Source: an uncultured Gemmatimonadota bacterium
GTDB lineage: Bacteria; JAAXHH01
NCBI GenBank assembly: GCA_951812955.1
Contig: OX638340.1
Coordinates: forward strand, 1-64,000
DNA: 64,000 bases
Direction: 5' to 3'
The notes below the pieces were generated by a model. It did not search any database. It saw only the letters and a program-made list of their open reading frames with translations, and was not told the DNA's origin. Below, in pieces: positions 1 to 48,398 of this stretch. Position numbers and translations under genes: made by a program. How positions within the stretch are numbered: the stretch's first letter is position 1; the number at the start of each line of letters is the position of its first letter.

Positions 1-264
1 CCCATATGTTCGGAAAGCCCGGGAATGGAACCGGCGTTGGAAGGTGGCTTATTCGTTGGTCCGATGCTGGTACAGCTCCACTGCGCCACGCAGGGAGCGT
101 CCATCGCCTATACCTTCAATGAGGACGACGACCCCCACTGGCTGTTGTACACCGAACCGCTGCGACTGGAATACGGCGAGCATCGATTGAAGGCAAGGGC
201 GATCCGCATAGGATACCGCGAAAGCCGCGAGATCCAGGTGAGATTCGTGGTGCGGGAGACATGA
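1..264 (+). CDS. 3' end of a gene that starts upstream of the window; hypothetical protein (C-terminal fragment)
   Basis: The open frame runs from window position 1 with no upstream stop. The 79-aa tail has no motif I recognise. It ends 160 nt before the next gene on the same strand. Confidence 0.3.
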   Translation, partial: PICSESPGMEPALEGGLFVGPMLVQLHCATQGASIAYTFNEDDDPHWLLYTEPLRLEYGEHRLKARAIRIGYRESREIQVRFVVRET

Positions 265-424
265 TCGGAGTGGCCGAGACATGATCGATGTGGTGGTGTA
301 CAGGCGTTCGGAGAAATGGGGCGCCGGGTCCAGTCTCCAAATGGATTGACCGGCGGATCGGGATTGGTTAAGGAAATACAGGCATGAATCGTGCAATTCC
401 GCGCACAGAACCCGGGGGACCGCC

Positions 425-1276
425 ATGGATCCTTCCTGCATTGCCCACTGCCTGACGGAAGCAGAGCGGGACCAATTCGATAAGCAGGGCTATTTCATCG
501 TGGAGAACGTCCTGGCGGACGACATGGTCAAGGCCCTGAACCGCATCGCGGACCGTATCGACGAGGAAAACCGGCCGAAAGAGGGCGACGGCGTCTACCG
601 TGTCCTGAACCACTTCGACATCATCGGCCGGGACGACCTGCTGCTGGAACTGCTTGACTGGCCGAAAACCTTCCCCAAGGTCTGGGGTATACTCGGCTGG
701 CACATTCAGCTGTACCATTCCCATTTAATCGTCTCGCCACCGTGGCCGGCCGGACAGAAACCCAGGAAACGGCGCCTGGGCTGGCACCAGGACAGCGGCA
801 GGCTGAACATCGACCTGGAAACCTCGCCCCGCCCGCGGATATCGTTGAAAGTGGCGTTCTTTTTGAGCGACTGCACGGCAACTGACCGCGGGAACTTCCA
901 CGCCGTTCCGGGTAGCCATCGCAGAGACGAAATCGAGTTTCCCGAGGACGACGAGCTGGATCCGGACGGGGCTGTGCCGATCCAGGCGGCGGCCGGCGAC
1001 GCCGTGTTCTTTGATCGCCGCCTCTGGCACGCTTCGGGGATCAACTATTCCGAGATCAGCCGCAAGGTGCTTTTCTACGGATACAGCTACCGGTGGCTGC
1101 GTCCCCGGGACAACATGACGGTGGATCATTACATGAGCCGCTGCGACCCCATCCGGAGACAGCTTCTTGGCGCCGGACCATCGGGTGGTCATGGTTATAC
1201 TTCGCCCCTGCTCGAAGACATCCCCCTGCGCGAGTGGATCGGCAAACACGCGGGCCGGGAGAACGTGGTCGGCTGA
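425..1276 (+). CDS. phytanoyl-CoA dioxygenase (PhyH) family Fe(II)/2-oxoglutarate oxygenase
   Basis: 283-aa ORF. The N-terminal 'QFDKQGYFIVENVLADDMVKAL' and the later 'WHQDSGR...GNFHAVPGSH...LWHASGINYS' (HxD...H facial triad plus 'RRxxxxxYxY') are typical of the PhyH family. Confidence 0.75.
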   Translation: MDPSCIAHCLTEAERDQFDKQGYFIVENVLADDMVKALNRIADRIDEENRPKEGDGVYRVLNHFDIIGRDDLLLELLDWPKTFPKVWGILGWHIQLYHSHLIVSPPWPAGQKPRKRRLGWHQDSGRLNIDLETSPRPRISLKVAFFLSDCTATDRGNFHAVPGSHRRDEIEFPEDDELDPDGAVPIQAAAGDAVFFDRRLWHASGINYSEISRKVLFYGYSYRWLRPRDNMTVDHYMSRCDPIRRQLLGAGPSGGHGYTSPLLEDIPLREWIGKHAGRENVVG

Positions 1277-1310
1277 GACGGTGATATGCTTGGACAGTCC
1301 TCAGATAGTC

Positions 1311-1418
1311 CGGTCCACCCAGGTGGTCGGGTCCTCCCAGGTGGTCGGGTCCTCCCAGGTGGTCGGGTCCACCCAGGTGGTCGGGTCCACCCAGGTGGTC
1401 GGGTCCTCCCAGGTGATT
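1311..1418. repeat. 18-bp tandem repeat, about 6 units (GGGTCC[A/T]CCCAGGTGGTC), directly upstream of the first operon gene
   Basis: Seen directly: units at 1311-1328, 1329-1346, 1347-1364, 1365-1382, 1383-1400 and 1401-1418. Each unit carries an inverted repeat CCACC-N2-GGTGG and an AGGTGG (Shine-Dalgarno-like) core. The last unit supplies the AGGTGA RBS at 1411-1416 for the ATG at 1423. Confidence 0.9.
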
Positions 1419-1422
1419 GGGC

Positions 1423-1716
1423 ATGAGTGAATCAACCGGAAACATGGCGGAACAGCAGGCCCTGCTCGACCGGATCGCCGAGGCCGTGGTCGCGCGCGAA
1501 CTCACCGCGCCCGCGGTGCTCTTCCTTGAATCTATGAAACCCCTCTCGTTTCTGGGTGGTCAGTTCATGGCGTTTCTCAGTCCCTTCATTCACATGGTGG
1601 TCGATGCGTCAGAATACGACCGGATCGCCGAGGCCATCGAGCGCCGCGAGAACGTGGAATTTCTGATACAACGCATTGAGCATCATGCTTCCGGGAACGA
1701 TGACCCGGCCGACTGA
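1423..1716 (+). CDS. small hypothetical protein (97 aa), first gene of the candidate operon
   Basis: ATG at 1423 is preceded by AGGTGA. The ORF track starts at the TTG at 1417. The protein is acidic and helical-looking, with a duplicated 'DRIAEA(V/I)' motif (EYDRIAEAIERRENVEF). I could not assign a family. Confidence 0.5.
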   Translation: MSESTGNMAEQQALLDRIAEAVVARELTAPAVLFLESMKPLSFLGGQFMAFLSPFIHMVVDASEYDRIAEAIERRENVEFLIQRIEHHASGNDDPAD

Positions 1717-1721
1717 TTTCT

Positions 1722-1770
1722 GTCCAACCAGGTTCTGGCCAATCAGGTTCCGGCCAACCAGATTCGTAAG
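1722..1770. repeat. 15-bp tandem repeat x3 (CCAAYCAGGTTCYGG) immediately after the small ORF
   Basis: Seen directly: ccaaccaggttctgg / ccaatcaggttccgg / ccaaccagattcg. Intergenic between the stop at 1716 and the next start at 1836. Confidence 0.8.
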
Positions 1771-1835
1771 TACGCGCAGACGCTCGGCGTACCGCTTCAG
1801 GTAGATGCTTTCCATGTTCACGTAGAAGAATCCCC

Positions 1836-3638
1836 ATGTCCCTTCCATCGGATATTGAAGTCATTCTGGCCACGGACTGCGGCAGCACGACGACCAAGGC
1901 CATCCTGATCGAAAAACGGTCCGGCGCCTACCGTCTCCTTGTTCGCGGCGAGGCGCCGACGACCGTGGAGGCGCCCTTCGAGGATGTCACGCGGGGCGTG
2001 CTCAACGCGGTGCGCGAGGTGGAGGAGCAATCCGGCCGCGCGATCCTCGACGGGGACCGGATCGTCTCGCCGGGGGCCGGGGGCCGGGGGGTTGACCTCT
2101 ACGTCTCGACGAGCAGCGCCGGCGGCGGGCTTCAGATGATGGTGGCCGGGGTGGTCAAGAGCATGACCGCCGAGAGCGCCGAACGGGCGGCCCTCGGCGC
2201 GGGCGCCATCGTCATGGAAACACTGGCGTCCAACGACGGGCGCCTGCCCCACGAACGCATCGAACGCATCCGGCAACTTCGACCGGACATGATCCTGCTT
2301 TCGGGCGGCGTGGACGGCGGTACAAAGTCCCACGTGGTCGAGATGGCAGAACTAATCTCCGCCGCCGACCCGAGACCCCGTCTGGGAAGCGGATACGATC
2401 TGCCGGTCATATTTGCCGGAAATACAGAGGCCGGCGAGGACGTCAGGCGGATCCTGGACGACAGGACGGAACTCAGCCAGGTGGAGAACCTGCGGCCCGT
2501 GCTCGAGGCGGAGAACCTGGGCCCCGCGCGGGAACGGATCCATACACTGTTCATGGAACACGTGATGGCCCAGGCGCCCGGTTACCGGGCCCTGATGGCG
2601 TGGACCCACGTGCCCATCATGCCCACCCCCGGCGCCGTGGGCAGGATGGTGCGGGTCGTCGCCGACCGCGACGGTATCGACGTGGCGGGCGTGGACATCG
2701 GCGGCGCGACCACCGATGTGTTCTCGGTCTTCGGCGGCGCCTTCAACCGGACCGTGAGTGCCAATCTCGGCATGAGTTACAGCATTTCCAACGTGTTGAC
2801 GGAAGCGGGACTGGAGGCCATTGCGCGGTGGCTGCCGTTCGATATGACCGACGCCGATCTGAAGGACCGCCTCGGCAACAAGATGATCCGTCCCACCAGC
2901 ATCCCCCAGACCATGGAGGAACTGATCATCGAGCAGGCCGTGGCCCGCGAAGCCCTGAGGTTGGCCTTCGAGCAGCACAGGAACTTTGCCGTGACGTTGA
3001 AGGGCGTGCAACAGCTTCGAACGATATCGGACACCTTTGACCAGCAGACGGGCGGACAGACCCTGGTCGACCTGATGAACCTGGACCTGATCATCGGCAG
3101 CGGCGGCGTGCTTTCCCATGCGCCGAACCGGTCACAGGCCGCGTTGATGCTGGTGGACGCCTTTCAGCCGGTAGGCATCACGAACCTGGCGGTGGACAGC
3201 ATATTCATGATGCCCCACCTGGGGGTGCTTTCCACCGTGCATGAGACCGCGGCGCTGGAGGTTTTCGACCGAGACTGCCTCGTATATCTCGGACCCTGCG
3301 TCGCCCCGGCCGGAAGGGGTAACGCGGGTTCGCACAGCGTGACGGTGAAGGCCAGGGCCGATGGCGTGGAAACCGTGTGCGAGGCCGTCGTGGGAGAACT
3401 GGCCGCGATCCCGACAGGGGAAGCGGAGGAAGTCGTACTGGAGGTCATTCCATCCCGCGGTTTTGACGTCGGCGCCGGCAGAGGCACGCCGGTCACCCGT
3501 ACCGTCCGCAATGGCCCGCTGGGCGTGATTATCGATACGCGCGGCAGACCGCTTCAACTGCCGGCCGACGCGGCCGAAAGGGTGGAGGTCCTGAAGCGAA
3601 GTTACCGCGCACTCGAAGTCTATCCGGAGTCCAGTTGA
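1836..3638 (+). CDS. GlmL/MutL(EutA)-like actin-fold ATPase (600 aa); the 'methylaspartate mutase accessory' type, here without mutase subunits
   Basis: N-terminal 'VILATDCGSTTTKAILIE' phosphate-1 motif, a second 'GVDIGGATTDVFSV' motif and 'DLIIGSGGVLSHAP' match the actin/ASKHA fold as seen in GlmL/EutA-like proteins. It is much longer than the roughly 460-aa GlmL. The stop TGA at 3636-3638 overlaps the next ATG. Confidence 0.65.
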   Translation: MSLPSDIEVILATDCGSTTTKAILIEKRSGAYRLLVRGEAPTTVEAPFEDVTRGVLNAVREVEEQSGRAILDGDRIVSPGAGGRGVDLYVSTSSAGGGLQMMVAGVVKSMTAESAERAALGAGAIVMETLASNDGRLPHERIERIRQLRPDMILLSGGVDGGTKSHVVEMAELISAADPRPRLGSGYDLPVIFAGNTEAGEDVRRILDDRTELSQVENLRPVLEAENLGPARERIHTLFMEHVMAQAPGYRALMAWTHVPIMPTPGAVGRMVRVVADRDGIDVAGVDIGGATTDVFSVFGGAFNRTVSANLGMSYSISNVLTEAGLEAIARWLPFDMTDADLKDRLGNKMIRPTSIPQTMEELIIEQAVAREALRLAFEQHRNFAVTLKGVQQLRTISDTFDQQTGGQTLVDLMNLDLIIGSGGVLSHAPNRSQAALMLVDAFQPVGITNLAVDSIFMMPHLGVLSTVHETAALEVFDRDCLVYLGPCVAPAGRGNAGSHSVTVKARADGVETVCEAVVGELAAIPTGEAEEVVLEVIPSRGFDVGAGRGTPVTRTVRNGPLGVIIDTRGRPLQLPADAAERVEVLKRSYRALEVYPESS

Positions 3639-4762
3639 TGGCCCACGCCTATACATCGGGCCTGCGCGTATCGCCCCGGACCGTTGTCGCCCGGACACGG
3701 CGCCTTCCACTGAGTGGACAGGTGGTGGTGCAGGTGGATGACCGGGTACGGCCCGATACGGTGGTCGCAGAGACGTATCTGCCCGGACCGGTGCACAACG
3801 TCAACGTCGCCAATGCCCTGGCCATTGCGCCCGAGGACGTACCAGGCTGTATGCTGAAGCAACGGAACGATTCGGTGGAAAAAGGGGAGTTGATCGCCGA
3901 ATCAAAGGGGATTTTCGGGCTGTTCAAGTCCGCTGTCCGGTGCCCAGAGCGCGGAACAGTCGAAATGGTGTCGGATGTGACCGGCCAGGTGCTTATTCGG
4001 GAACCGTCGACCCCGGTACGGATCAACGCCTATCTCGATGGCAGGATAACCGAACTCCTTCCTGGAGAGGGTGTCATGGTGGAAACAGTCGGAGCCTTCA
4101 TCCAGGGCATCTTCGGCATAGGGGGCGAAGTGCACGCGCCGATAAATCAGATCGTCCAGTCGCCCGATGAGGAGGTCACCGAGGAGATGGTCGATGCGCG
4201 GTGCGCGGGACAGATCGTCTGCGGCGGATCCATGATCACCCTTGACGCGCTGCGTAAGTTGATAAGGGTCGGCGCGTCGGGTGTGGTGGTAGGGGGCATG
4301 CAGTACCACGACATCGGCGACCTCCTGGGTTACCAGATCGGCGTCGCGGTGACCGGCGGGGAAGACATCGGCCTGACCGTGGTGGTCACCGAAGGCTTCG
4401 GGCGGCTGCCCATGGCCGAGCGCACGTTCGACCTGATCGGGTCCATGGAGGGCCGGGAAGCCTCTATGAGCGGCGCCACGCAGATCCGGGCCGGTGTGAT
4501 TCGCCCCGAAATCATCATTAAGACCGACGGCTTCGAAGAACCGCAGGCACGATCGGATCCGGCGGCCCGCGGCCTGGTATCCGGGTCCCTGGTGCGCCTG
4601 ATCCGCAAGCCATGGTTTGGAGAAATCGCCACGGTGGCGTCGTTGCCGGAACAACCCGTCAGGCTTCCGACAGGCGCCCTGGCCCGGGTGCTGGAAGTTC
4701 GCAGGACGAACGGAGAGATCGTGACCGTGCCCCGAGCCAACGTGGAGATCGTGGAGTCCTGA
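3638..4762 (+). CDS. hypothetical protein (375 aa), translationally coupled partner of the actin-fold ATPase
   Basis: ATGA overlap with the upstream gene. Gly-rich central region ('GIFGIGGEVHAP', 'GGSMITLD...GASGVVVGGMQYHDIGD'). No TM segments obvious and no family recognised. Confidence 0.5.
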   Translation: MAHAYTSGLRVSPRTVVARTRRLPLSGQVVVQVDDRVRPDTVVAETYLPGPVHNVNVANALAIAPEDVPGCMLKQRNDSVEKGELIAESKGIFGLFKSAVRCPERGTVEMVSDVTGQVLIREPSTPVRINAYLDGRITELLPGEGVMVETVGAFIQGIFGIGGEVHAPINQIVQSPDEEVTEEMVDARCAGQIVCGGSMITLDALRKLIRVGASGVVVGGMQYHDIGDLLGYQIGVAVTGGEDIGLTVVVTEGFGRLPMAERTFDLIGSMEGREASMSGATQIRAGVIRPEIIIKTDGFEEPQARSDPAARGLVSGSLVRLIRKPWFGEIATVASLPEQPVRLPTGALARVLEVRRTNGEIVTVPRANVEIVES

Positions 4763-5700
4763 TGCGTCTATCCCCGTCACGCCGCAAGCCACACCCTGAT
4801 TCCTTCGCGATCGCGCTGCTGCGTGCTGTCCTCGCGTGTACGGTGTTCGTCGCCATGGCGCAGACGGATCTCCTTTTCGCACAGACTGACACCGAATCCG
4901 GCTGGTTCAACGCGGACCGGACCCAGGCCCTGGTACTCGGGATCGTCCTGACGGGCGCCATTCTGCTTTACGTTGTGCTGGCCGCCTCGGGCCGGCCCCT
5001 TTTCATTCGTAAAATCGCCGGCCTGGAAACGGTCGAGGAAGCCGTGGGCAGGGCGACGGAGATGGGCAAGCCCATCCTCTACGTCCCCGGCCTGAACGAC
5101 ATGGACGAGGTGCAGACCATCGCGTCCATGAACCTGCTGGGTCATCTCGCCACCATCATCGCGGGATACGACTCCAGGCTGCACGTACCCGTACGCAAGT
5201 CCCTCGTCATGAGCGTGGCGCGCGAGACCGTGCAGCAGTCCTACCTGTCCGCGGGGCGCCCCGACGCTTACCAGGAGGACGACATTCACTACGTGTCGGA
5301 CGCCCAATTCGCCTACGCGGCGGCCGTCGATGGCATCATCGTACGTGAACGGCCGGCCGCATGCTTCTACCTGGGCGGATTCTACGCCGAATCCCTTATC
5401 CTGGCGGAAACGGGCAACTCCATCGGGGCCATACAGATCGCGGGAACGGCCAGGCCTCCTCAACTGCCATTCTTCGTGGCGGCATGCGACTATACGCTGA
5501 TCGGCGAGGAACTTTTCGCCGCCAGCGCGTACCTGTCCAAGGAGCCGCGCATGCTCGGCAGCCTGAAGGGCCAGGACGCCGGCAAGGGCATCGCCATCGT
5601 GTTCATCCTGGCCGGCAGCGCGCTGGCCACACTGGAGTCCGTCACCGGAAACGAGACCGTCCGCGAAGTGTCGCAAATCGTCCTCTGGCTTTTCAGGTAG
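4762..5700 (+). CDS. membrane protein (312 aa): N-terminal signal/TM, a second TM, then a soluble domain and a C-terminal hydrophobic segment
   Basis: ATG at 4762 overlaps the TGA of the upstream gene (TGATG). Hydrophobic stretches 'FAIALLRAVLACTVFVAMA', 'LVLGIVLTGAILLYVVLAA' and a C-terminal 'GIAIVFILAGSALATL'. The longer ORF-track start at 4612 lies inside the upstream gene and is unlikely. Confidence 0.5.
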   Translation: MRLSPSRRKPHPDSFAIALLRAVLACTVFVAMAQTDLLFAQTDTESGWFNADRTQALVLGIVLTGAILLYVVLAASGRPLFIRKIAGLETVEEAVGRATEMGKPILYVPGLNDMDEVQTIASMNLLGHLATIIAGYDSRLHVPVRKSLVMSVARETVQQSYLSAGRPDAYQEDDIHYVSDAQFAYAAAVDGIIVRERPAACFYLGGFYAESLILAETGNSIGAIQIAGTARPPQLPFFVAACDYTLIGEELFAASAYLSKEPRMLGSLKGQDAGKGIAIVFILAGSALATLESVTGNETVREVSQIVLWLFR

Positions 5701-5705
5701 ATCCC

Positions 5706-6386
5706 ATGCGTCGTAAAATACCGCTCATCATCACATTCATCATCGGCGTTGTCCTGGTCACAGGGTATTTCGTGACAAGGGGACCGTTCAACACGCTGTA
5801 TGAGAGTTTCTCCGATTATTTCGCCATCATTACGGTCTTCGCCTTCATCCTCGGCGGCGGCAGTCTGCTAAAGATTCATTTGAAACGCGTTTCCAACCGA
5901 TCCACGGACTGGCCCTACAGTGTGGTAACCCTGGCGGGGTTCCTCGTCACCCTGGTGATCGGACTGTTCAAGGTGGGCAATCCGGATGGGATGGGCGGGG
6001 AGATCCTGGCTGCCGGTTCCTGGCTGCGCTTCCTGTTCGACGGGGTCTACAATCCGCTGTCGGCGACCATGTTCTCCCTGCTGGCCTTCTTTGTCGCCTC
6101 GGCGTCCTACCGGGCCTTCAGAGCGCGTACGAAGGAGGCCACCATCCTCCTTTCCGCCGCCATGGTCATCCTGCTGGGCAGAACCCCCGTGGGCGCCTGG
6201 CTGACGGCCTGGATGCCGGAAATCCTGGGATTTCTCGAACTGCCGAACCTGGCCAACTGGATCATGGCCTGGCCGAACACGGCCGGCCAGCGTGCGATAA
6301 TGATCGGCATCGCCCTGGGGGTCATCGCGACCTCACTGCGCATCATCCTGGGGATCGAGCGCAACTACCTGGGCAGGAGGGAGTGA
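5706..6386 (+). CDS. polytopic integral membrane protein (226 aa)
   Basis: ATG at 5706 lies 5 nt after the upstream stop. There are 5-6 hydrophobic helices ('IPLIITFIIGVVLVTGYFV', 'FAIITVFAFILGGGSLL', 'VVTLAGFLVTLVIGLF', ...). The track's longer N-terminus (from 5361) is an Arg/Gly-rich readthrough inside the previous gene. Confidence 0.5.
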   Translation: MRRKIPLIITFIIGVVLVTGYFVTRGPFNTLYESFSDYFAIITVFAFILGGGSLLKIHLKRVSNRSTDWPYSVVTLAGFLVTLVIGLFKVGNPDGMGGEILAAGSWLRFLFDGVYNPLSATMFSLLAFFVASASYRAFRARTKEATILLSAAMVILLGRTPVGAWLTAWMPEILGFLELPNLANWIMAWPNTAGQRAIMIGIALGVIATSLRIILGIERNYLGRRE

Positions 6387-6388
6387 GC

Positions 6389-7288
6389 ATGCGGATTCCC
6401 GATTCCATCCTGCATATCGACCGGCGGATCATCTTCCTGCTCATCGGGGCGGCCGTCTGCATACCCCTGATCCTGCAGCCCCGCTTCCAGGACAGTCCCA
6501 CGCCTATCGTCCAGTCGATTTTCGACACGGTGGAGCGGCTGCCGTCCGGGTCGCGCGTATTCCTTTCCTTCGATTACGGTCCGGACACGGCGCCCGAACT
6601 GGATCCCATGGCCAAGGCCCTCGTGCGGCACACGATGACCCGGGGCCACGAGGTGTCCTTCTTCACCCTGTTCCCCGAAGGGCTGGGACAGATCAAGAAG
6701 ATCACGGACAACCTGCTGCCTGTGGAGTTCCCGGAGAAAGCCTATGGCAGGGATTTCGTGAACCTGGGTTACAAGGCCGGCCTGGGTGGCGCGATTAATA
6801 CGATGGTCGTCAACTTCCGAACGCTGATCAATGCCGACGCGGAGGGCACGCCGCTCGACGATCTGCCCATGACCGCGGATGTCGACGAGATGGTGGACTA
6901 TGCCATTATCCTCAGCCTGACCGCGGGCGACCCGGGACTGAAGGAGTGGATTCAGTTCGCGGGCGATATCGCGGGGATTCCCGTCATGGGCGGGGGCACC
7001 GCCGTGGTGGCGCCGGAACTGTATCCCTACTATCCTCAGCAACTGGTCGGCCTGATGGGCGGCCTCAAGGGCGCTTCCGAGTACGAGTCCGCCCTTGTGG
7101 ACCGGTATCCGGCCTACCGTAACGCCACCATGGACGCCACCATGCGCATGGGGCCCCAGGTCGTCACCCACGTGCTGATCGTCCTGCTGATCCTGCTGGG
7201 CAATCTGGCTTACTTCTTCGGCCGATCTGGCCGACCGGGCCGGAATGACCGGACGGACCGGGCGGACCAGGCGGACCGCAGGCGTTAA
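6389..7288 (+). CDS. bitopic membrane-anchored protein (about 300 aa) with N- and C-terminal TM helices; the C-terminal tail is encoded by a 9-bp repeat
   Basis: GGAGG at 6377-6381 precedes the ATG at 6389; GTG at 6383 is an alternative that overlaps the upstream TGA. TM 'IIFLLIGAAVCIPLIL' near the N-terminus and 'VVTHVLIVLLILLGNLAYFF' near the C-terminus. Terminal 'GRSGRPGRNDRTDRADQADRRR' is low complexity. Confidence 0.5.
   Translation: MRIPDSILHIDRRIIFLLIGAAVCIPLILQPRFQDSPTPIVQSIFDTVERLPSGSRVFLSFDYGPDTAPELDPMAKALVRHTMTRGHEVSFFTLFPEGLGQIKKITDNLLPVEFPEKAYGRDFVNLGYKAGLGGAINTMVVNFRTLINADAEGTPLDDLPMTADVDEMVDYAIILSLTAGDPGLKEWIQFAGDIAGIPVMGGGTAVVAPELYPYYPQQLVGLMGGLKGASEYESALVDRYPAYRNATMDATMRMGPQVVTHVLIVLLILLGNLAYFFGRSGRPGRNDRTDRADQADRRR
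7243..7280. repeat. 9-bp tandem repeat (RGGCGGACC) x3-4 inside the 3' end of the 6389-7288 CDS
   Basis: Seen directly: ggacggacc / gggcggacc / aggcggacc (7251-7277). It belongs to the same family as the arrays at 18810-18935 and 21110-21175. Confidence 0.7.
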
Positions 7289-7299
7289 AGGAACGGCGT

Positions 7300-7974
7300 A
7301 TGGATGTTACACTGCAGCTTTGGATCGACGCGGCCCTGACGCTGATGATCCTCAGCTTCCTGTACCGTGACAATCCTTTCTACAAATTCGCCGAACATCT
7401 CTTTGTCGGCGTGTCCGCCGCGTACCTCATGGCAATCGGATTCTGGGACCACCTGGTCCCGAACCTGCTGGGCAAACTGTTCCCCTCGCTCATGTCGGGG
7501 GTCGTGCCCGGCGCCGTCGGCCGGTCGCCGGATTACTACTACATCATCCCCGCCGTCTTCGGCCTGCTGCTTCTTACCCGCCTGGTCGACCGCTGGGCCT
7601 GGCTCAGCCGGTGGGCGCTGGCGTTCATCGTCGGCGGCTCGGCGGGATTCAACCTGCCCCGCTTCCTGGATTCGGACTTCATCATTCAGGTCCAAAGCAC
7701 CATGGTTCCGCTCGTGGTGCTCGACCCGGCTGGCAATCTGCTCTGGGGCGCGAGTTTTTCCCACATTGTACTCGTTCTGGGCGTGATCTGCGGACTGGTG
7801 TACTTCTTCTTCTCCGTAGAACACAAGGGGATACTGGGACACGTGTCTCGTGCTGGGATCTGGGTGTTGATGGTGACCTTCGGCGCCGCCTTCGGATACA
7901 CGGTCATGGCGCGCATCTCCCTCCTCACCGGCAGGATGGAAGCCCTGGGCGCCTGGCTCGCCACCATGTTCTGA
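7300..7974 (+). CDS. polytopic integral membrane protein (224 aa), last gene of the candidate operon
   Basis: AGGAA RBS before the ATG at 7300. At least 5 hydrophobic helices ('AALTLMILSFLY', 'LFVGVSAAYLMAIGFW', 'YYYIIPAVFGLLLL', 'IVLVLGVICGLVYFFF', 'IWVLMVTFGAAFGYTV'). Confidence 0.5.
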   Translation: MDVTLQLWIDAALTLMILSFLYRDNPFYKFAEHLFVGVSAAYLMAIGFWDHLVPNLLGKLFPSLMSGVVPGAVGRSPDYYYIIPAVFGLLLLTRLVDRWAWLSRWALAFIVGGSAGFNLPRFLDSDFIIQVQSTMVPLVVLDPAGNLLWGASFSHIVLVLGVICGLVYFFFSVEHKGILGHVSRAGIWVLMVTFGAAFGYTVMARISLLTGRMEALGAWLATMF

Positions 7975-7992
7975 TTGGAGACCGTCGCGCGG

Positions 7993-8040
7993 CCCGGTCC
8001 GATGTCCGGGCGACCCGGTCCGATGTCCGGGCGACCCGGT
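7993..8040. repeat. 21-bp direct tandem repeat x2.3 (CCCGGTCCGATGTCCGGGCGA) just downstream of the operon
   Basis: Seen directly at 7993-8013 and 8014-8034 plus a partial third copy. It contains the CGGACCGGG core shared with the 9-bp repeat family (reverse orientation). Confidence 0.8.
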
Positions 8041-18695: not shown

Positions 18696-18809
18696 ATACC
18701 ATGCTCGGTCCGGCGTCAGGCCACGCCACGGTTTTTCGGACCCTGCGTAACCGGATGTATCGACACGGGCGTAAATCCCGTGTTTCAAGGAACGTCGACC
18801 GATGCGGAA

Positions 18810-18935
18810 CAGGATCAATCGGACCAATCGGGCCAATCGGACCAGTCCGGCCAGGCGGACCGAGTGGGCAAATCTGGCCAAGCTGGCCAAGCTGACTAGG
18901 CGGACCAGGCGGACCGAGCTGACCAGGCGGACCAG
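18810..18935. repeat. array of 9-bp/hexamer-type tandem repeats (…GGACCAATCGG… and …AGGCGGACC…) upstream of the methyltransferase gene
   Basis: Seen directly: caatcggaccaatcgggccaatcggaccagtccggccaggcggacc ... ctggccaagctggccaagctgactaggcggaccaggcggaccgagctgaccaggcggaccag. It gives Arg/Thr/Asn repeats in the + frame and a PGP/IGP repeat in the - frame. Confidence 0.7.
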
Positions 18936-18939
18936 AGAC

Positions 18940-19479
18940 ATGGAGACCAACTTCGAGGTACGCAGTTTCGATGCGGAGATCACAAAGGAAGCGTACGACA
19001 GGCTGCCCAAGCTGCCGCTGTATTTCGTACTGGACAACCTGCGCAGCGCATTCAACGTGGGTTCCATATTCCGGACCTGCGACATCCTGCGGGTTAAAAG
19101 CCTCTTTCTGTGCGGTTACACGGCCTGTCCGCCCCACGCGAAGCTGGAGAAGACGGCCCTGGGCACCATAGATTACGTCCCCTGGCGTAATTTCGAGTCG
19201 GCCGTCGACGCGGTCGACTACCTGCGAGACAGAAGCGTCGCGGTGTGGGCCGCCGAAACGGCTTCGGGTTCGGTTCCGTATGACGAGGCGGTATTTCCGG
19301 ACGAATTGGCGATCGTCCTGGGTAACGAGGCGCTGGGCGTGAGCCGCGACGTGCTGGAACGGTGTGACGGCCTGGTCGAAATCCCCACGCGGGGCTACAA
19401 GAATTCGCTCAACGTGGCGTCCGCCTGCGCGGTCCTGGGATTCAAGGCGCTGGAGCAAATGGAAGGGAAATCGAACTGA
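18940..19479 (+). CDS. SpoU/TrmH-family RNA 2'-O-methyltransferase
   Basis: 'VLDNLRSAFNVGSIFRTCD', 'IVLGNEALGVS', 'LVEIPTRGYKNSLNVASACAVL' are the SPOUT motifs. Start chosen at 'METNFEV' because the 46-aa upstream extension is repeat-encoded low complexity. Confidence 0.75.
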   Translation: METNFEVRSFDAEITKEAYDRLPKLPLYFVLDNLRSAFNVGSIFRTCDILRVKSLFLCGYTACPPHAKLEKTALGTIDYVPWRNFESAVDAVDYLRDRSVAVWAAETASGSVPYDEAVFPDELAIVLGNEALGVSRDVLERCDGLVEIPTRGYKNSLNVASACAVLGFKALEQMEGKSN

Positions 19480-20380: not shown

Positions 20381-21430
20381 TTGAACTACGACGCATTGCT
20401 CCTGGTATCATTCGGGGGCCCGGAAGGCGCCGCCGACGTCCTCCCCTTTCTCGAGCGCGTGCTCAAAGGCCGGCGCGTTCCCAGGGAACGAATGATGGAG
20501 GTCGCGGAACACTACCACCATTTCGGTGGGGTCAGCCCGATAAACAGCCAGAACCGGGCACTGATCTCCGCCCTTGAAAGCGCGTTGGCGAACCGCGACC
20601 TTCCCCTCCCGATCTACTGGGGAAACCGGAACTGGCATCCCTTGCTGGCGGATACGGTCCGGCGGATGGCCGCGGACGGGATCCAACGGGCGCTGGCCCT
20701 CGTTACGTCCGCCTACAGCTCCTATTCGAACTGCAGGCAGTACCTCGAGAACATCGAGGATGCCCGGCGCGAGGTGGGCGGCGGCGCCCCGAAAATCGAC
20801 AAGATCAGGCCCTTTTTCCATCATCCGGGTTATATCGAAACGATGGAGGCACGCGTTCGTTCCGCCCTGGACCGCTTGCCGGAAGCGCGCCGCGCCTCGG
20901 CGCACCTGGTGTATACCGCCCACAGCATACCCCTGGCCATGGCTCGGGGATGCGCGTACGAAGCGCAACTCCGGGAAGCCTCCCGGCTCATCAGCGCGCG
21001 CGCGGGCGCTTCCTCCTGGACGCTGGCATTTCAAAGCCGCAGCGGTCCGCCCGCTCAGCCCTGGCTGGAACCCGATGTCTGTGATTACATCCGGTCGTTC
21101 CACGAGACTGGCGCGGGCCGGGCGGACCGAGCGGACCGAGCGGGCCGGGCGGACCGGGCGGACCGGGATATCGTGTTGATCCCCGTAGGATTCATCTCGG
21201 ACCACATGGAAGTGGCCTACGACCTGGACATTGAAGCGCGGGCGTGTTGCGATGAGCTCGGGGTACGCATGGTCCGGGCGGAAACGGCGGGGACTCATCC
21301 CCGCTTCGTGGAAATGATCGTGGAACTCGTCGAAGAACGCCTGTCCCTGACGACGGCCAGGGCGGCCGTGGGTGTCCTGGAACCGTGGCCCGATCGATGC
21401 CCGCCGGACTGCTGCCCTTCCGGCAGGTAG
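20381..21430 (+). CDS. hemH: ferrochelatase (likely coproporphyrin ferrochelatase CpfC) carrying an in-frame repeat insertion
   Basis: 'LLVSFGGPEG', 'SPINSQNRALISALESAL', 'YWGNRNWHP', 'IPVGFISDHMEVAYDLDIEA' are ferrochelatase signatures. 'GAGRADRADRAGRADRADR' immediately before the 'IVLIPVGF' strand is encoded by the 9-bp repeat. Confidence 0.85.
   Translation: MNYDALLLVSFGGPEGAADVLPFLERVLKGRRVPRERMMEVAEHYHHFGGVSPINSQNRALISALESALANRDLPLPIYWGNRNWHPLLADTVRRMAADGIQRALALVTSAYSSYSNCRQYLENIEDARREVGGGAPKIDKIRPFFHHPGYIETMEARVRSALDRLPEARRASAHLVYTAHSIPLAMARGCAYEAQLREASRLISARAGASSWTLAFQSRSGPPAQPWLEPDVCDYIRSFHETGAGRADRADRAGRADRADRDIVLIPVGFISDHMEVAYDLDIEARACCDELGVRMVRAETAGTHPRFVEMIVELVEERLSLTTARAAVGVLEPWPDRCPPDCCPSGR
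21110..21175. repeat. 9-bp tandem repeat (CGGACCGRG/CGGGCCGGG) x about 6 inside hemH
   Basis: Seen directly: ggccgggcggaccgagcggaccgagcgggccgggcggaccgggcggaccggg. Confidence 0.8.
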
Positions 21431-22490: not shown

Positions 22491-24549
22491 CGGGGATGCG
22501 ATCTAAATCCGACAGCCAGACCGCCGGAGAAGCATCGGACGGCATCCGCCAGTCGCCACGGGGGGATATACAGGTCATGCCGACCTTGGGCCCTTCCGGC
22601 AGGCAGTTCCGTTTGAACTGGTTCTGGAAGAACCGGACGATAAAGACGCGCAGCCAGGTCTTGATCTCCCGGAGTTCGTACTTTCCCTCGAATGCATGCA
22701 TTGCCATCCGGGCGATACGCGAGGGCGAGAAGCCGAATCGCATGAAGTAGTAGATGAAGAAGTCGTGCAGTTCGTAGGGACCGATTTTCTCTTCGGTTTT
22801 CTGGGCGATCTCCCGCTCGCGCGGTGGCAGCAATTCCGGTGAAATAGGCGTGTCGAGAATGTCCAGCAGCACGTCCCTCACTGCCGACTCCTGTTCGAAG
22901 ACCTCGTCGGCGGTCCAGCGGATCAGGTAGGAAATGAGGGTCTTGGGAATCCCTGCATTGACGCCGTAATGGCTGGCATGGTCGCCGAACATGGTGCACC
23001 ATCCCAGCGCCAGTTCCGAAAGGTCGCCGGTACCGAGTACGATACCCTTGACCTGGGCGGCCGTGGCGAGTTCCTCCAGTTTCCGGGTCCATGCCTGGGT
23101 GTTTTCGTAGACGAGGTCTTTCTTGTCTTCCGAATGCCCGATATCCCCGAAGAACTGCCGCACCGCGGGTTTGATGTCGATCTCCCGGAAAGTGGCGCCG
23201 ACCGCCCGGATCAGCGTACATGCGTTCGAGTAGGTTCGCTCCGTAGTGCCCAGTCCCGGCATGGTCAGGGCCACGATGCGGGACCGCGGCAGGCCGAGCA
23301 GGTCCATGGTGTGTACTGCGACATTCAGGGCGTGGGTCGAATCCTGGCCCCCTGACACCGCCACGACGACCCTCCGGGCATCCTCGGGCAGCGATCTCAG
23401 CTTGGTCGCGAGTCCGGTGGACTGGATCATGAACACTTCGCGGCACCGCTGGCTGCGATCCGCGAGATTTTGCGGTACGAAGGGATGAGAGGGTATATCG
23501 CGCTCGAAGGTCCGATGCGCTACTCCGGGCGCCTTCCCGGCATTCTTCGAACCCTCTTCTCCAGCGTGGCCGGCATCTTTCGAACCCTCTTCTCCATCGT
23601 GGCCGAACCGGAATCCCGGAAGGTAAGCGGACCGCCAGGATGACTTGTAGTCCATGGCGTTCTGACGGAAAGAGCCCTGGACGCCCCGCTCCAGCGTCAG
23701 CGCCTCCACGTCGACGTCCGCGACGATGCAGGCTCCATCAAGCTGGAAGCGTTCGGTTTTCGCCAGCATGTAGCCTCGTTCGGCGATGAACCCGTGGCCG
23801 TCCCAAACCACGTCCATGGTCGACTCCCCGAATCCCGCCGCGGCGTACATGTGGACGGCCTCGTTGCGGCCCGATGAAGCCAGGACGAGGTCCTCCCGGT
23901 ACTGCGCCTTGCCGATGACGATGTTGGAGGCCGACAGGTTCGCCAGAATGCTCGCGCCCGCCAGCGCCGCCCTGCTGCTCGGGGGCACCGGAACCCAGTC
24001 GTCTTCGCAGATCGTCGGATATATCACGACCCTGGGATCATCCGTACGCAACAGCACGTCGGGTCCGAATGGCGCTTCCCGGCCACAAAGAGATACAGAG
24101 TCGGTCTGCGCTTCCGCGGCCCGGGCAAAATACCGCGTCTCATAAAACTCGCGATATTGCGGGAGATAGGTCTTGGGCGCAACGGACAGGATGTCTCCGC
24201 GGCTGCAGGTTACCGCGACGTTGAAGACCGCGTGATCGATCCGCAGGGGCATGCCGAAACTGAAAGCCAGGCCGGTTTCCCTGGTCTGGTCCAGCAGTTC
24301 CTCAAGCGCCTTCAGCGCACCGTCCAGCAGCGCCTGGGAATGGAAGAGGTCGGCGCAGGTATAACCGGTCAGACTCAATTCCGGGAAAAGGACATAGGAA
24401 GCTCCCTTCCCGCCTGCCGCTTCGATCTGCTCCAGGTGATGCGCCACGTTCGCCGCGGGGTCGCCCACGCGAATACGGGGTACGGCGATGGCCAGGCGCA
24501 CGAAGCCGTGGCTGCGCACATCGAGAAACTGTTCGGGGCTGAGTTCCAT
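22480..24549 (-). CDS. nadE: glutamine-dependent NAD+ synthetase (N-terminal nitrilase/CN-hydrolase domain plus C-terminal synthetase)
   Basis: 689 aa. N-terminal '[19 protein letters not shown]...[15 protein letters not shown]' is the CN hydrolase domain. C-terminal '[15 protein letters not shown]' is the PP-loop (SGGxDS) synthetase domain. An internal 33-bp tandem duplication lies in the interdomain region. Confidence 0.9.
23539..23604. repeat. 33-bp direct tandem duplication inside nadE (30/33 identical)
   Basis: Seen directly: ggcattcttcgaaccctcttctccagcgtggcc / ggcatctttcgaaccctcttctccatcgtggcc. It encodes the duplicated peptide '[23 protein letters not shown]'. Confidence 0.85.
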
Positions 24550-38592: not shown

Positions 38593-39360
38593 ATGCCCGA
38601 TACATCCCTGTTCTCCCTGGAAGGCAAAACCATGATCGTTACTGGTGCGAGCAAGGGCATCGGCAAGGCCGTCGCGCTTGCGGCCGCCAGCGCCGGCGCC
38701 GACCTGGCGATCGGAAGCCGCACCCGGGCCGACCTGGAACTCGTGGCTACCGAGATCCGGTCGATGGGCCGTAGTTGCGCCGTTCATACGGTGGACGTGG
38801 GCAAGGTAGACTCGATCCGCGCGTTCGCGGACAAGGTGCTCGCTGAAGCAGGGGAAATCGACATCCTGGTCAACAACGCCGGGTGCAACCGGATCATGCC
38901 GGTGCTCGAAGTCACCGAAGAAGTGTACGACGAGATTATTGATGTGAACCTGAAAAGCGTATTCTTCCTCAGCCAGGCTCTCGCAGCCCACATGATCGAA
39001 CGAGGCCGCGGCGGCCGCATCATCAACGTTTCCTCCCAGGTGGGCGTGGTCGGCGGTCCATTGCGCGCGGCCTATACCGCGGCCAAGGGCGGCGTGTGCA
39101 CGCTGACCAAATCCATGGCGGCCGAATGGGCGGAGCACGGAATCACCGTGAATGCCGTGGCGCCGACCATGACGCGGACTCCTATGGTGGAGAAAGCGAT
39201 GGAGAACCCGGGATTCCGGGCCAATATCAAGAAGATTCTGCTGGGCCGGATTGCCGAACCGGAAGAAATCGCCAGTTCGATCATCTACCTCGCGTCCGAC
39301 GCCAGCGCCATGGTAACCGGCCACACCATGGTCGTGGACGGCGGATATACGGCCGTCTAA
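38593..39360 (+). CDS. short-chain dehydrogenase/reductase (SDR) family oxidoreductase
   Basis: 'KTMIVTGASKGIGKAVA' (TGxxxGxG), 'NNAG', the catalytic 'SSQVG...YTAAKGGV' (S...YxxxK) and 'VNAVAPT' C-terminal motif. GGAGGA RBS before the ATG at 38593. Confidence 0.85.
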   Translation: MPDTSLFSLEGKTMIVTGASKGIGKAVALAAASAGADLAIGSRTRADLELVATEIRSMGRSCAVHTVDVGKVDSIRAFADKVLAEAGEIDILVNNAGCNRIMPVLEVTEEVYDEIIDVNLKSVFFLSQALAAHMIERGRGGRIINVSSQVGVVGGPLRAAYTAAKGGVCTLTKSMAAEWAEHGITVNAVAPTMTRTPMVEKAMENPGFRANIKKILLGRIAEPEEIASSIIYLASDASAMVTGHTMVVDGGYTAV

Positions 39361-39465
39361 CGGCGCGCAACGGCCCACACGGCTACTGCGCGGCCGTTTC
39401 CTCACCGCTTCCGGTTCATCCCACATCGAGGCCGGTACCGCATCAAGTTCGGTACCACATCAAGG

Positions 39466-40461
39466 TCAGTTCCGCTGGCTTTTGACCAGGGCCCGGGCCC
39501 GGTTGTGCTCGCGGTTGGTGGTGGAGAAGATGTGCGTGCCGTCGCCTCGGGCTACGAAGAAAAGGTAGGGAACCTCCCGGGGATACAGGGCGGCGTGTAT
39601 GGATGCCATCCCGGGGCTGCAGATCGGTCCCGGCGGCAGCCCGTCATGCACGTAGGTGTTGTAGGGCGACGGGTCCGAAAGGTGCTTCTGGTACAGCCTC
39701 ATGTTGGGTCTTCCGATCCCGTATTGGACCGTTGGATCGGCCTCCAGACGAATGCCCCTTCGCAACCTGTTGTGAAACACCCCCGAAATTACCTCCCTTT
39801 CGTCGTCCACCATCGCTTCCTGTTCAATGATGGATGCCAGAGTAACGATCTCGTGTATGCTGTACCCCAGTTCCTCGGCCCGATTTCGGTACTCCGCCGT
39901 AATGGTTTGCAAATAACGGGACGTCATTTGCTTGAGGATGTCATCGACCGTCATGTCGGGGTACATGTTATAGGTCGCGGGATACAGGTATCCTTCCAGG
40001 GTAGACGCGTCGATCCCCAGCGATCGCACTACAGCCGGATCGGCGGACCGGTGTACGAATGCGGTGGAGTCTATACCTATCTTCGCTCGTAGAGTTCGGG
40101 CCGTTTCCGGTATGGTCAGGCCCTCCGGGACGTTGATACGATTGGCCGCGATCCTGCCCTCGGTGAGCATGCTCAGGATCTGGCCGGGGTCCATGTACGC
40201 CTCGATCTCGTAACGGCCCGCGTTGATCCCATGCTCTACCCCCTTGTAACGCGCCACGAATTCGAACAGGATCGCGTGACGTACGACGCCATGGTCTTCC
40301 AGTCCCCGGGCGACCTCGGACAGGGTCATGCCGGGGTCGACGTTGAAGATCAGGGCGTCTTCGCGGGGTACGGGCGTGGTAATAGACTGGTATGCCGCCG
40401 TGAGCAAGGCCGCTCCGGATAGTACGGCAAGTGCGATGACGCCAGGGATCAGTTTCTTCAA
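39466..40461 (-). CDS. mltG: endolytic murein transglycosylase MltG (YceG family)
   Basis: N-terminal TM 'LIPGVIALAVLSGAALL', 'GMTLSEVARGLEDHGVV', 'ASIIEQEA', 'GGLPPGPICSPG', 'LFFVARGDGTHIFS' are MltG/YceG blocks. Confidence 0.85.
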   Translation of the reverse strand: MKKLIPGVIALAVLSGAALLTAAYQSITTPVPREDALIFNVDPGMTLSEVARGLEDHGVVRHAILFEFVARYKGVEHGINAGRYEIEAYMDPGQILSMLTEGRIAANRINVPEGLTIPETARTLRAKIGIDSTAFVHRSADPAVVRSLGIDASTLEGYLYPATYNMYPDMTVDDILKQMTSRYLQTITAEYRNRAEELGYSIHEIVTLASIIEQEAMVDDEREVISGVFHNRLRRGIRLEADPTVQYGIGRPNMRLYQKHLSDPSPYNTYVHDGLPPGPICSPGMASIHAALYPREVPYLFFVARGDGTHIFSTTNREHNRARALVKSQRN

Positions 40462-45899: not shown

Positions 45900-48398
45900 A
45901 TGCGTAGCAAATCCCCTTTCCTGGCCGGCGTGTTGTTCTCCGCCTGCGTCTTCATCTCCGGAGTCGCGGGACAGGGGTGCGATTCCGGTTCCGAGCCTCA
46001 CCTGAACAGACTGGCCGGAGAAGCAAGCCCCTATCTGCGCGGCCATGCCCGGAACCCGGTGGATTGGTATCCGTGGGGCGCGGAAGCGATCGGACGCGCC
46101 CGCCGGGAGGGGAGGCCCATCTTCCTTTCCATCGGTTACTCGACCTGCCACTGGTGCCACGTCATGGAACGCAGGGTGTTTTCCGACCCCGGTATCGCCG
46201 CTTTCATGAATGCCCATTTCGTGAACATTAAGGTGGACCGCGAAGAACGCCCCGATGTAGATGAGATCTACATGGCGGCCACCCAGCTCATCACGGGCGG
46301 CGGCGGCTGGCCCAATTCGGTGTTCCTTACACCGGAACTCGAACCGTTTTTCGCCGGTACGTATTTCCCGCCGGAGGACCTGCCCGGCCGGCCCGGTTTC
46401 CCCCGGGTGCTGAACCTGTTGAAGGAGGCGTGGGACGCCCGCAGGGATGACCTGGTCGGACAGGCAGGCCGAGTGGCGGAAGCGATCCGGTCGCTTCAGC
46501 GCGACCAGGTCGCAGGAGACGGGACGGCGGTCCTGGACGAAGGAATACTCTCCGGTGCCCAATCGCACCTGAAAACGCGATACGATGCCGAAAACGGAGG
46601 ATTCGGCCCTGCGCCCAAGTTCCCGGCCCCTTTGCGAATTGAACTGGCGCTGAAAGAATACGAACGCACCGGCGACGGATCCCTGCTGTCCATGGCCACC
46701 CATACGCTGGACGTCATGATGAACGGCGGACTGTACGACCACGTGGGCGGCGGATTTCACCGGTATGCTACAGATTCCGGGTGGCGCATTCCCCACTTCG
46801 AAAAGATGTTGTATAACCAGGCAGACCTGGCCCGTGTCTACCTGCTGGCCTTCGAAATTACCGGCGAAACAGCCTACCGGGCCGTAGCCGAAGACGTGCT
46901 CGCCTTCGTCCAACGGGAGATGCGGGACCCCGGGAGCGCTTTCTATACCGCTGTGGATTCCGAGACCGACACCGTTGAAGGGCGTTACTACCTCTGGTCC
47001 GAGGAGGATATCAGGAAAACGCTTGGCGCAGACGCGGACGTCTTTCTGACACACTACGGCCTGGCGCCCATTTCCGGGACGGTCGCCGGAATCCCTGCCG
47101 TGGGTGACGTGGAAGGTGACGCGGTGGGCGTCGTGGATGGAGGCACGATAGGAGACGCGGAAGGAGATGCAGATGGTGACGCGGATGGTATCACCGGCGC
47201 GGGTGTCCTGTACGTAAGAACGGATAGGGATTCGGTCGGACCGCCCGACGGCCTGGATGAGCTGCGTGAAACGCTCCGATCGGCGCGTTCGAACCGAAAG
47301 CCTCCCGTGGTGGACACCAAGGTAATCACGGCCTGGAACGGCCAGATGATCGACGCCTTCGCCTACGCGGGGCTCGTGACGGACAACGGGCGTTACGTCG
47401 ACACAGCGGCGCGGGCCGCGGACTTCATCCTCGACCGCCTCTGGGACGACGGGTCCGGCCTCCACCGGATCTACCTGGAAGGAGCGGTTCATCGGGAAGC
47501 ATTTCAGGAGGACTACGCCTGCCTGATCCAGGGCCTGCAGAGACTGCATGAGGTCAGTGCGGAGCCGCGTTGGCTCGCCGCGGCCGAAATGCTCACGAAC
47601 CGGATGAACGAACGCTTCTGGGATACCGAGCGGGGCGGGTACTTCTTCGCGGAAGGCGGAGAATACCAGATCGTTCGCACGCGAAACGCCTTTGATGGCG
47701 CACGGGCATCCGGGAACGGCATGGCCGCCCGGTCACTGGTCTCAATGGCGCGCCTCACCGGCGACTATCGGTACCGGGCGCGAGCCGCACGCCTGTTCAA
47801 CGCATATGCTTCGTCGATGCATGAGATCCCCGGCCGGTTTACCTCCATGATCCTTGCGCTGCGGGACTATCTACACGACGAACGGATTCCGGTACAAATG
47901 GCTGGCGCGGATGGAGGGTCCCCCGCCGGGGAGCACGGGCGGAACGGAAGGACAGGCCCGGGAGAGGGGACGGACCCTTCGGGTGCGGGATTCGGCGGCG
48001 AACCAAAGGTCGTGGCCCGGCTGAGCGTCGTGGCGGGCCCGCGCGAGGAATCCTTCAACGCGACCGTATCGATCTCCATCGAGGACGGTTGGCACATTAA
48101 TGGCAATACGACTTCTGTCCCGGGACTGGTTCCCACGGCCCTTACTTTCAACGCGGATATCCCCATCGAGGCCGCCGCGATTTCTTACCCACCGGCTGAG
48201 ACGATGCGGTTCGCATTTGCCGACGCCCCGCTGGAGGTCTATCGTGGCGACGTCCGGCTGGGTGCCGATATCGATGTGGATCCCGGGTCCCTGGCGGAAG
48301 GCATGCTACTCTACGCGACCCTCTACTACCAGCCCTGCGACGACGCCGTGTGCCTCGAGCCGGCGGAGATCACGATGTCGGCCCCGATGCATCCGTGA
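45900..48398 (+). CDS. DUF255/YyaL-type thioredoxin-domain protein with (alpha/alpha)6 'N-acylglucosamine-epimerase-like' domain, a Gly/Asp repeat insertion and a long C-terminal extension; lipoprotein
   Basis: Lipobox '[11 protein letters not shown]'. '[46 protein letters not shown]' is the thioredoxin-like CxxC part. '[26 protein letters not shown]' and the downstream region are YyaL-like. The ORF-track start at 45867 is 11 aa longer. Confidence 0.7.
47104..47195. repeat. imperfect GGTGACGCGG-type repeats encoding a (V/E)GDA(D/E)G Gly-Asp tract inside the DUF255 protein
   Basis: Seen directly: gtgacgtggaaggtgacgcggtgggcgtcgtggatggaggcacgataggagacgcggaaggagatgcagatggtgacgcggatggtatc. It gives '[35 protein letters not shown]'. 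Confidence 0.7.

Follow-up and report, generated by a model that had tools for sequence, protein, structure and literature searches.

Intergenic minisatellites of variable copy number at both boundaries of a small gene in a MutL-like ATPase operon of an uncultured Gemmatimonadota bacterium

The small gene and its two arrays

The stretch of DNA analysed here (hereafter the window) comprises 64 kb of contig OX638340.1 of an uncultured Gemmatimonadota bacterium. Close to its start lies an operon whose first gene, a conserved open reading frame (ORF) of 97 amino acids, is bracketed by two short tandem repeat arrays, one of 18-mers in its leader and one of 15-mers in the spacer that separates it from the second gene, which encodes a MutL-like ATPase. 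Tandem repeats were searched for with Tandem Repeats Finder (TRF), proteins were assigned with Pfam and RNAs with Rfam. Both arrays are intergenic variable number tandem repeats (VNTRs) of a known kind and not a new regulatory device: their units are repeated in tandem beyond chance, their copy number differs between close relatives, and they are of recent origin and homogenised. We consider it likely that both are near-neutral hypervariable minisatellites, which would be at most modest modulators of expression.

An earlier note on this DNA had described six 18-bp units ending at the ribosome-binding site (RBS) and start codon of the small ORF. The array is borne out by TRF, which reports it at 1308-1415 (period 18, 6.0 copies, 95% matches, score 188), and by a motif scan in which GGGTCCWCCCAGGTGGTC gave six consecutive matches at 1311-1418, against 0.16 expected in shuffled sequence, and a single unrelated match with three mismatches elsewhere in the 64 kb, at 39028. 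The units differ from each other by a mean Hamming distance of 1.27 in 18 positions. The Shine-Dalgarno (SD)-like core AGGTGG, also described before, is present in units 1-5, while the last unit, GGGTCCTCCCAGGTGATT, merges into unique sequence and contains the working SD candidate of the small ORF, AGGTGAT, 5 nt 5' of the ATG at 1423. SD sequences of the AGGTGAT type pair with the canonical 3' tail of 16S rRNA (the anti-SD). The further statement that each unit holds CCACC-N2-GGTGG is true of only three of the six units, those of A type; the T-type units have CCTCC, and a hairpin with a 2-nt loop is sterically impossible. The array lies outside any ORF, between the stop codon of the upstream PhyH-family gene (TGA ending at 1276, 34 nt 5' of the first unit) and the SD at 1411. 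A TGA at 1414-1416 closes the small-ORF frame, so the array is not an N-terminal extension of the small protein.

The second array occupies part of the 119-nt gap between the small ORF and the ATPase gene (start at 1836), where a separate 15-bp array had correctly been seen. TRF reports 3.2 copies at 1718-1765 (score 68), and the window has four units when the register is set by comparison with two sister contigs, L081 (three units) and L093 (five units). The first unit is degenerate and holds the TGA stop codon (1714-1716) of the small ORF. Directly 3' of the array, at 1771-1793, is a GC-rich hairpin (GTACGC..GCGTAC) with no T-run after it; all three alleles (window, L081 and L093) have the same stem, and the hairpin is absent from L001-L004, the closest ATPase relatives in the genome collection.

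Table 1 Features at the start of the window.
Feature	Position	Strand	Basis and remarks
Intergenic 18/20-mer array, GGTGCGGGAGACATGATC-like, ~2 copies	241..293	+	TRF; unit holds stop codon of ORF 25-264
PhyH-family dioxygenase, upstream gene	425..1276	+	Pfam PF05721, E = 3e-24
Non-repeated part of leader, fast-evolving	1277..1310	+	Alignment with relatives
18-mer minisatellite, six units GGGTCC[A/T]CCCAGGTGGTC, A/T order A-T-T-A-A-T	1311..1418	+	TRF, motif scan
AGGTGAT, working SD candidate of small ORF	1411..1417	+	In last unit, 5 nt 5' of ATG 1423
97-amino acid ORF, operon gene 1, conserved	1423..1716	+	Homologues of 60-96% identity
15-mer minisatellite, four in-register units CCGACTGATTTCTGT, CCAACCAGGTTCTGG, CCAATCAGGTTCCGG, CCAACCAGATTCGTA	1709..1768	+	TRF and sister comparison
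MutL-like ATPase (PF13941), operon gene 2	1836..3638	+	Pfam E = 3e-127

Origin and turnover of the arrays

The relatives L001-L004, which are closed or large contigs of metagenome-assembled genomes (MAGs), share 84-86% amino acid identity with the window in the ATPase and have the same order of PhyH gene, small ORF and ATPase gene. Their leaders measure ~58-65 nt and their spacers ~55 nt, and each has either no tandem repeat or one in 13.8 kb. Two further relatives with the same gene order, L100 and L101, whose small protein is 87-89% identical, also have no arrays, and across all six contigs the leaders span ~56-65 nt. At the site of the window's 18-mer array, each of the six carries one copy of GGTTCTTCCAGGTGA[T/C]AG just 5' of the start codon, and a lone copy of CCAGGTGAT/CCAGGTGAC has been conserved in L002, L004 and L100. 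Since a single-copy segment occupies the array site in these relatives, the 18-mer unit can be traced to a duplicated SD-bearing segment, and the "decoy SD" of the window units is there because the unit derives from that segment. The arrays are therefore young and specific to the lineage. A conserved link of repeats with the operon was rejected, as a repeat lies within 500 nt 5' of the ATPase gene in 7 of 77 distant operon relatives (9%), compared with a background of 6.2%. One Brocadiaceae contig (L021) has a leader repeat that is independent and of another kind, TTTCGGA repeated 13.7 times at 3126-3233, some 30-40 nt 5' of the ATPase gene.

Turnover can be followed in two sisters of the window, L081 (a metagenome contig) and L093 (an ENA contig), which are 95-98% identical to it in the PhyH gene, the small ORF and the 5' end of the ATPase gene and ~92% identical in non-repeated intergenic DNA; the segment 1277-1310 gives no BLAST match to either. 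The leader contains 6 units of the 18-mer in the window, 7.1 in L081 and 8.1 in L093. Comparing copy number in variants had been proposed as a check, and both arrays do differ among the three at orthologous sites. The sequence of the units has changed as well. In both sisters GGTCCAACCGGGCGATCG alternates with GGTTCAACCAGGCGCTTT, forming a 36-nt higher-order repeat, and the 18-mers of the window differ from those of the sisters at 5.3-6.0 of 18 positions (~30%), one fixed difference included. A divergence of 1.27/18 within the array against 5.3-6.0/18 between arrays is concerted evolution. The window core AGGTGGTC is replaced by AGGCGAT, GGGCGAT or AGGCGCT in the sister units, which also lack the CCACC/GGTGG palindrome.

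Further sister lineages have different arrays at the same places. In L099 (small protein 93% identical) five GCGGACCAG 9-mers in the leader run into CCAGGTGATTGGCATG, and in L095-L098 (95% identical) the leader carries GCTGACCAT in 2.2 copies. The spacer of L095, L096 and L098 contains two copies of a 27-mer and that of L097 one, with an identical small protein in all four, so that the 27-mer is a copy-number polymorphism among near-identical contigs. The spacer of L094 (91% identical) is just 17 nt long. Arrays are found in nearly every intergenic spacer of the sister loci.

VNTRs expand and contract by slipped-strand mispairing and/or unequal recombination. We propose that tandem duplication at both boundaries of the small ORF gave rise to the arrays, the 18-mer stemming from the SD-bearing segment of ~18 nt just 5' of the start codon and the 15-mer from the segment around the stop codon. 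Slippage and/or unequal recombination would most probably expand, contract and homogenise the arrays, and selection would purge those that disrupt an ORF, leaving intergenic arrays and in-frame arrays with a period divisible by three. Leader or intercistronic RNA probably includes both arrays, and these would have extended the leader to 146 nt (from ~60 nt) and the spacer to 119 nt (from ~17-55 nt). The true RBS would always be the terminal unit, anchored in unique sequence. The five extra anti-SD-complementary sites of the window allele would then be a by-product of the origin of the unit, present because the SD lay within the duplicated segment, and not a device favoured by selection. Expression would be affected at most by a modest modulation dependent on copy number, and the arrays may still exert a graded tuning effect.

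Leader structure and possible roles in expression

The earlier note suggested that the repeats form stacked hairpins and could act as a translational or attenuator-type control element. We folded the sequences and expressed the result as a z-score relative to dinucleotide shuffles, positive values meaning that the natural sequence folds worse. The leader RNA of the window gave z = +1.39 (188 of the 200 shuffles folded as well or better) and the array as single-stranded DNA z = +0.61, which speaks against stacked hairpins; the values were +0.20 and +0.09 for the leader RNAs of L081 and L093, and +1.07 for the RNA of the 15-mer region. Folding the leader, which had been recommended as a check, thus revealed no excess structure in any of the three alleles. 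Rfam found no family in the whole 64-kb window at the gathering threshold, and a search of 1100-2000 at a permissive E-value gave a best E of 0.19, far below gathering scores. No terminator-like site is present in the leader (1277-1422). A scan limited to promoters of the sigma-70 type found none in 1100-1900, and the 18-mer unit lacks a sigma-70 consensus, a result to be read with the caveat that the promoter type of this lineage may differ from sigma-70.

A structured RNA or riboswitch was rejected on the absence of an Rfam family and of excess folding, together with the absence of the element from orthologous leaders. Attenuation of transcription, or control by a leader peptide, fails for the lack of a leader terminator, for z-scores of +0.09 to +1.39 and for an upstream ORF (uORF) whose frame L081 and L093 do not share. 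As for a translational control element, the decoy SD and the palindrome are absent from the sister alleles, and the array as a whole is missing from relatives of 84-89% identity that have the same operon. In a model of RBS opening, the energy required was 8.5 kcal/mol for a single unit and 9.0-9.5 kcal/mol for 2-11 units. Because this curve is flat, the modelled accessibility of the RBS is independent of copy number, there is no predicted structural switch, and masking of the RBS by additional units was discarded.

The arrays had also been suggested to be a phase-variable, slippage-prone switch. Classical contingency loci are known from Haemophilus, Neisseria and Moraxella and include repeats in 5' untranslated regions or promoters, such as the AGAT tract of uspA2 and the 7-mers of hmw; their tracts have units of 1-8 nt, lie in ORFs or between promoter elements and flip expression when their length changes, and some act as graded rheostats instead of on/off switches. 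The 18-mer array likewise forms a tract 5' of a gene whose length would change by slippage. Unlike those tracts, however, it has 18-nt units, lies outside any ORF or recognisable promoter and leaves the RBS unit intact, and its host is not a host-adapted pathogen. The slippage-prone part of the suggestion, with its variable copy number, is supported by L081 and L093, whereas the anatomy of an on/off switch is lacking: with the array outside ORFs, a period of 18, no sigma-70-like promoter spanned (none in 1100-1900) and the RBS-proximal unit intact, a change in copy number cannot act as such a switch, and an on/off contingency locus was rejected.

Several observations weigh against near-neutrality. 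Arrays of differing unit recur at exactly both gene boundaries in several sister lineages, which could mean that a variable leader is selected for and not merely tolerated. The window array is very homogeneous and has kept an 8-nt complementarity to the anti-SD (with one G-U pair) in every unit, and strong SDs are rare, as 11 of 47 genes have a match of at least 5 nt to the anti-SD at -20..-4 and none a match of at least 6 nt (with crude start calls). With homogeneous anti-SD-complementary units in a setting of few strong SDs, an effect of the array on ribosome recruitment is plausible. Neutrality, moreover, would itself be deduced from a lack of conservation.

The foremost alternative, although we regard it as improbable, is a tuning locus of rheostat type, in which copy number in the leader and spacer would modulate how far the operon of small ORF and ATPase is transcribed or translated and variability would be maintained because it is useful, much as with VNTRs in promoters or 5' untranslated regions of pathogens. 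It would account for the recurrence of different arrays at the same boundaries, for the difference in copy number between close relatives at both sites and for the polymorphism of the spacer 27-mer in a sister species. It also has a precedent in the promoter-proximal VNTRs of Mycobacterium tuberculosis, where units of 54-58 bp lie 12-29 bp 5' of genes and vary in copy number among strains and within populations (PMC12817950). VNTR or minisatellite loci near gene starts are the best functional and formal match. The mycobacterial interspersed repetitive unit (MIRU)-VNTR and promoter repeats resemble the present arrays in having head-to-tail units a few bases 5' of a gene, a copy number that differs between close relatives, and slippage or recombination as the presumed mechanism. 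They differ in the length of the unit (15-18 nt here), in that no promoter is recognisable in our unit, where the duplicated segment bears an SD instead, and in the host, here an uncultivated environmental lineage. Against the tuning locus, arrays occur in almost every intergenic spacer of the sister loci, so that selection peculiar to this operon need not be invoked; relatives of the operon in other lineages have no arrays; no promoter element of the sigma-70 type lies within or across the unit; the RBS-proximal unit is always kept and RBS accessibility is predicted not to depend on copy number; and the sequence of the unit is not conserved.

We judge it quite unlikely that the five upstream AGGTGGTC sites increase or reduce initiation at the ATG at 1423 by acting as standby sites for ribosomes or as decoys. 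With one G-U pair, AGGUGGUC in each of units 1-5 is complementary to the canonical 16S tail GAUCACCU, and no other SD in the window is as strong as the true one, AGGTGAT. However, all upstream units of the sister alleles have a central mismatch (AGGCGAT, GGGCGAT, AGGCGCT), which makes the complementarity specific to one allele and a consequence of the duplication of the SD segment, and this genome appears to make little use of SDs. The tail used in the comparison is moreover the canonical one, as the 16S gene of the host lies outside the window; no rRNA or tRNA gene was found in the 64 kb.

Still less probable is an iteron-like array bound by a DNA- or RNA-binding regulator. Cyanobacterial short tandemly repeated repetitive (STRR) heptamers are a known case related to the TAACTGA heptamers, for which such binding 5' of start codons has been proposed. 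The TAACTGA repeats overlap ribosome-binding regions 5' of start codons in Beggiatoaceae, Cyanobacteria and Bacteroidetes, with the same heptamer at >100 loci and across phyla (PMC4679880). Here too, tandem repeats sit at the ribosome-binding region in an environmental bacterium and occur in many intergenic regions of the genome. The likeness is confined to position, however: each locus here has its own unit, the 18-mer is unique in the 64 kb and units turn over between sisters. We accordingly rejected a genome-wide leader repeat of the TAACTGA/STRR type: within the window the 18-mer is found only at 1311-1418, and the cores CCAAYCAGG and GGNCCAAYCRG are not or marginally enriched. The regular direct repeats abutting the start codon, and the CAACCAGG that the 15-mer has in common with the sister 18-mer, would suit a binding-site array, but genomes of 95-98% identity have units that diverge by ~30%, the window has no second site for the 18-mer, motifs built on the shared cores show no enrichment at dispersed positions and orthologous operons lack the site.

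Least credible of all is a peptide encoded by the repeats and coupled to, or regulating, the small ORF. Two candidates exist, a uORF from the ATG at 1286 to the TGA at 1424-1426, which overlaps the small-ORF start as ATGA and would encode PGGRV[L/H] repeats, and an antisense ORF at 1056-1505. In the window and L081 alike the uORF stays open and ends on ATGA, a gene caller has annotated a 44-amino acid ORF in the L093 leader, and the antisense frame is open in all three alleles; yet the window unit is stop-free in all six frames, which makes open frames uninformative, a 1-nt indel in L093 shifts the ATG to another frame whose ORF stops inside the array, the uORF ATG is absent from L001-L004, the peptide sequences are not conserved and the antisense ORF overlaps two real genes.

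Repeats across the window and the lineage

The two arrays are not isolated cases. The TRF output for the window has 18 rows at a score of at least 50 and five at a score of at least 80, whereas 20 dinucleotide shuffles average 0.45 and 0, and most of the arrays are intergenic or lie in frame inside coding DNA. The array at 241-293 has 5.1 copies at the orthologous site in L081 (2755-2848), with an in-frame TGA in each unit, and its L093 equivalent has 2.4 copies at the cut end of the contig. In the ferrochelatase, an alignment of 22 homologues shows from 0 to ~17 units of a tripeptide array, and from 2 to ~11 among those that are at least 91% identical. As arrays are generic in the window and in the sister spacers and have no association with the operon at large, they belong to the lineage and not to the operon. 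We also looked for a dispersed family with a shared core (GGNCCAAYCRG, CCAAYCAGG, GACCRGGCG) and rejected it, since enrichment was absent or weak and driven by the arrays themselves.

The ferrochelatase gene (20381-21430) carries this array as an in-frame 9-mer in six copies, AGRADRADRAGRADRADR, at 21113-21167, in a loop before the conserved DRDIV..GFISDHMEV; three of the 22 homologues have a second variable insert near the C-terminus, and some are labelled Gemmatimonadota by NCBI. In a 301-amino acid membrane protein (ORF 6383-7288), the 9-mers GACCGGGCG and GACCAGGCG at 7220-7278 extend the C-terminal tail to ..YFFGRSGRPGRNDRTDRADQADRRR*, and the tail is short in five orthologues (L001-L004 and L100), of the form ..YFI[SDG]RR[SN]R[QK]R(Q)*, for example ..YFISRRSRQR* in L002 and L003. 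Some fourteen 9-mers (GGACCAATC ... GACCAGGCG) at 18812-18935 end 4 nt 5' of the ATG at 18940, the probable start of a SpoU-family methylase; alternatively, they may form an N-terminal extension from the ATG at 18802. Their unit GACCAGGCG is also the unit of the L099 leader array. Further arrays are a 21-mer in 2.5 copies at 7989-8040, intergenic and 3' of ORF 7300-7974; a 17-mer in 3.1 copies at 39424-39475, between the 3' ends of two convergent genes; a 33-mer in 2.1 copies at 23537-23605, inside the NAD synthase gene; and a 12-mer in 7.2 copies at 47103-47189, inside a DUF255/thioredoxin-like gene.

The operon itself is widely conserved, with its small ORF, MutL-like ATPase and DUF6754 protein. 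The small ORF matches no Pfam family and its homologues always adjoin a MutL-like ATPase gene, while the ATPase has 591 relatives spread over many phyla. Between the ATPase gene and 7974 follow genes for a 375-amino acid protein with a weak RnfC_N-like match, the DUF6754 protein and three membrane proteins, and the PhyH gene adjoins the locus in all close relatives. The operon (1423-7974) is kept in MAGs (L001-L080 and L082) labelled Zixibacteria, Latescibacterota, Eisenbacteria, WOR-3, Brocadia, Nitrospirota, Ignavibacteria and others. L082, in which the small protein has a Zixibacteria label, shows a 14-nt overlap of small ORF and ATPase gene, which in the window stand 119 nt apart. Exact matches for three window proteins were not found on record, and 1.5 units used as an exact pattern gave 0 matches against metagenome contigs.

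With the arrays recognised as VNTRs, a candidate regulatory RNA or switch can be struck off, and its eye-catching SD-like cores and palindromes follow from the segment that was duplicated. The arrays can serve as strain-level markers for an uncultivated lineage. They also call for care in annotation, as gene callers extend ORFs through arrays or call ORFs inside them, for example P0005 (124 amino acids) and the 44-amino acid ORF in L093. Public gene calls in leader arrays comprise L099 851-1225 (124 amino acids, with a ATQATQAGQADQADQ N-terminus), L093 1040-1174 (44 amino acids) and L095 3001-3303 (100 amino acids, from a repeated ATG).

The most useful by-product of this analysis is the evidence that hypervariable arrays of 9-36 nt arise unusually readily in this lineage, both at gene boundaries and in protein loops, a tendency not seen in the relatives of 84-86% ATPase identity. 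Our search of the literature on tandem repeats in Gemmatimonadota returned nothing relevant, and we found no description of a clade-wide repeat regime of this kind. It is a speculative and rather doubtful extension that 9-36-nt arrays pile up throughout the clade, preferentially at gene boundaries, duplicating stop codons and RBSs, and in frame in protein loops, as evolutionary tuning knobs; the two arrays would then be a single example, with the widely conserved operon as the target of the tuning. Such a regime could be caused by a lineage-specific change in replication or repair, which is conceivable because the relatives of 84-86% ATPase identity have the same gene order and no arrays. If clade-wide instability is real and does have a genetic cause, the lineage would offer a natural system for minisatellite dynamics in free-living bacteria, and would also show how far tightly coupled genes, which overlap by 14 nt in the Zixibacteria relative and stand 119 nt apart here, tolerate being pushed apart.

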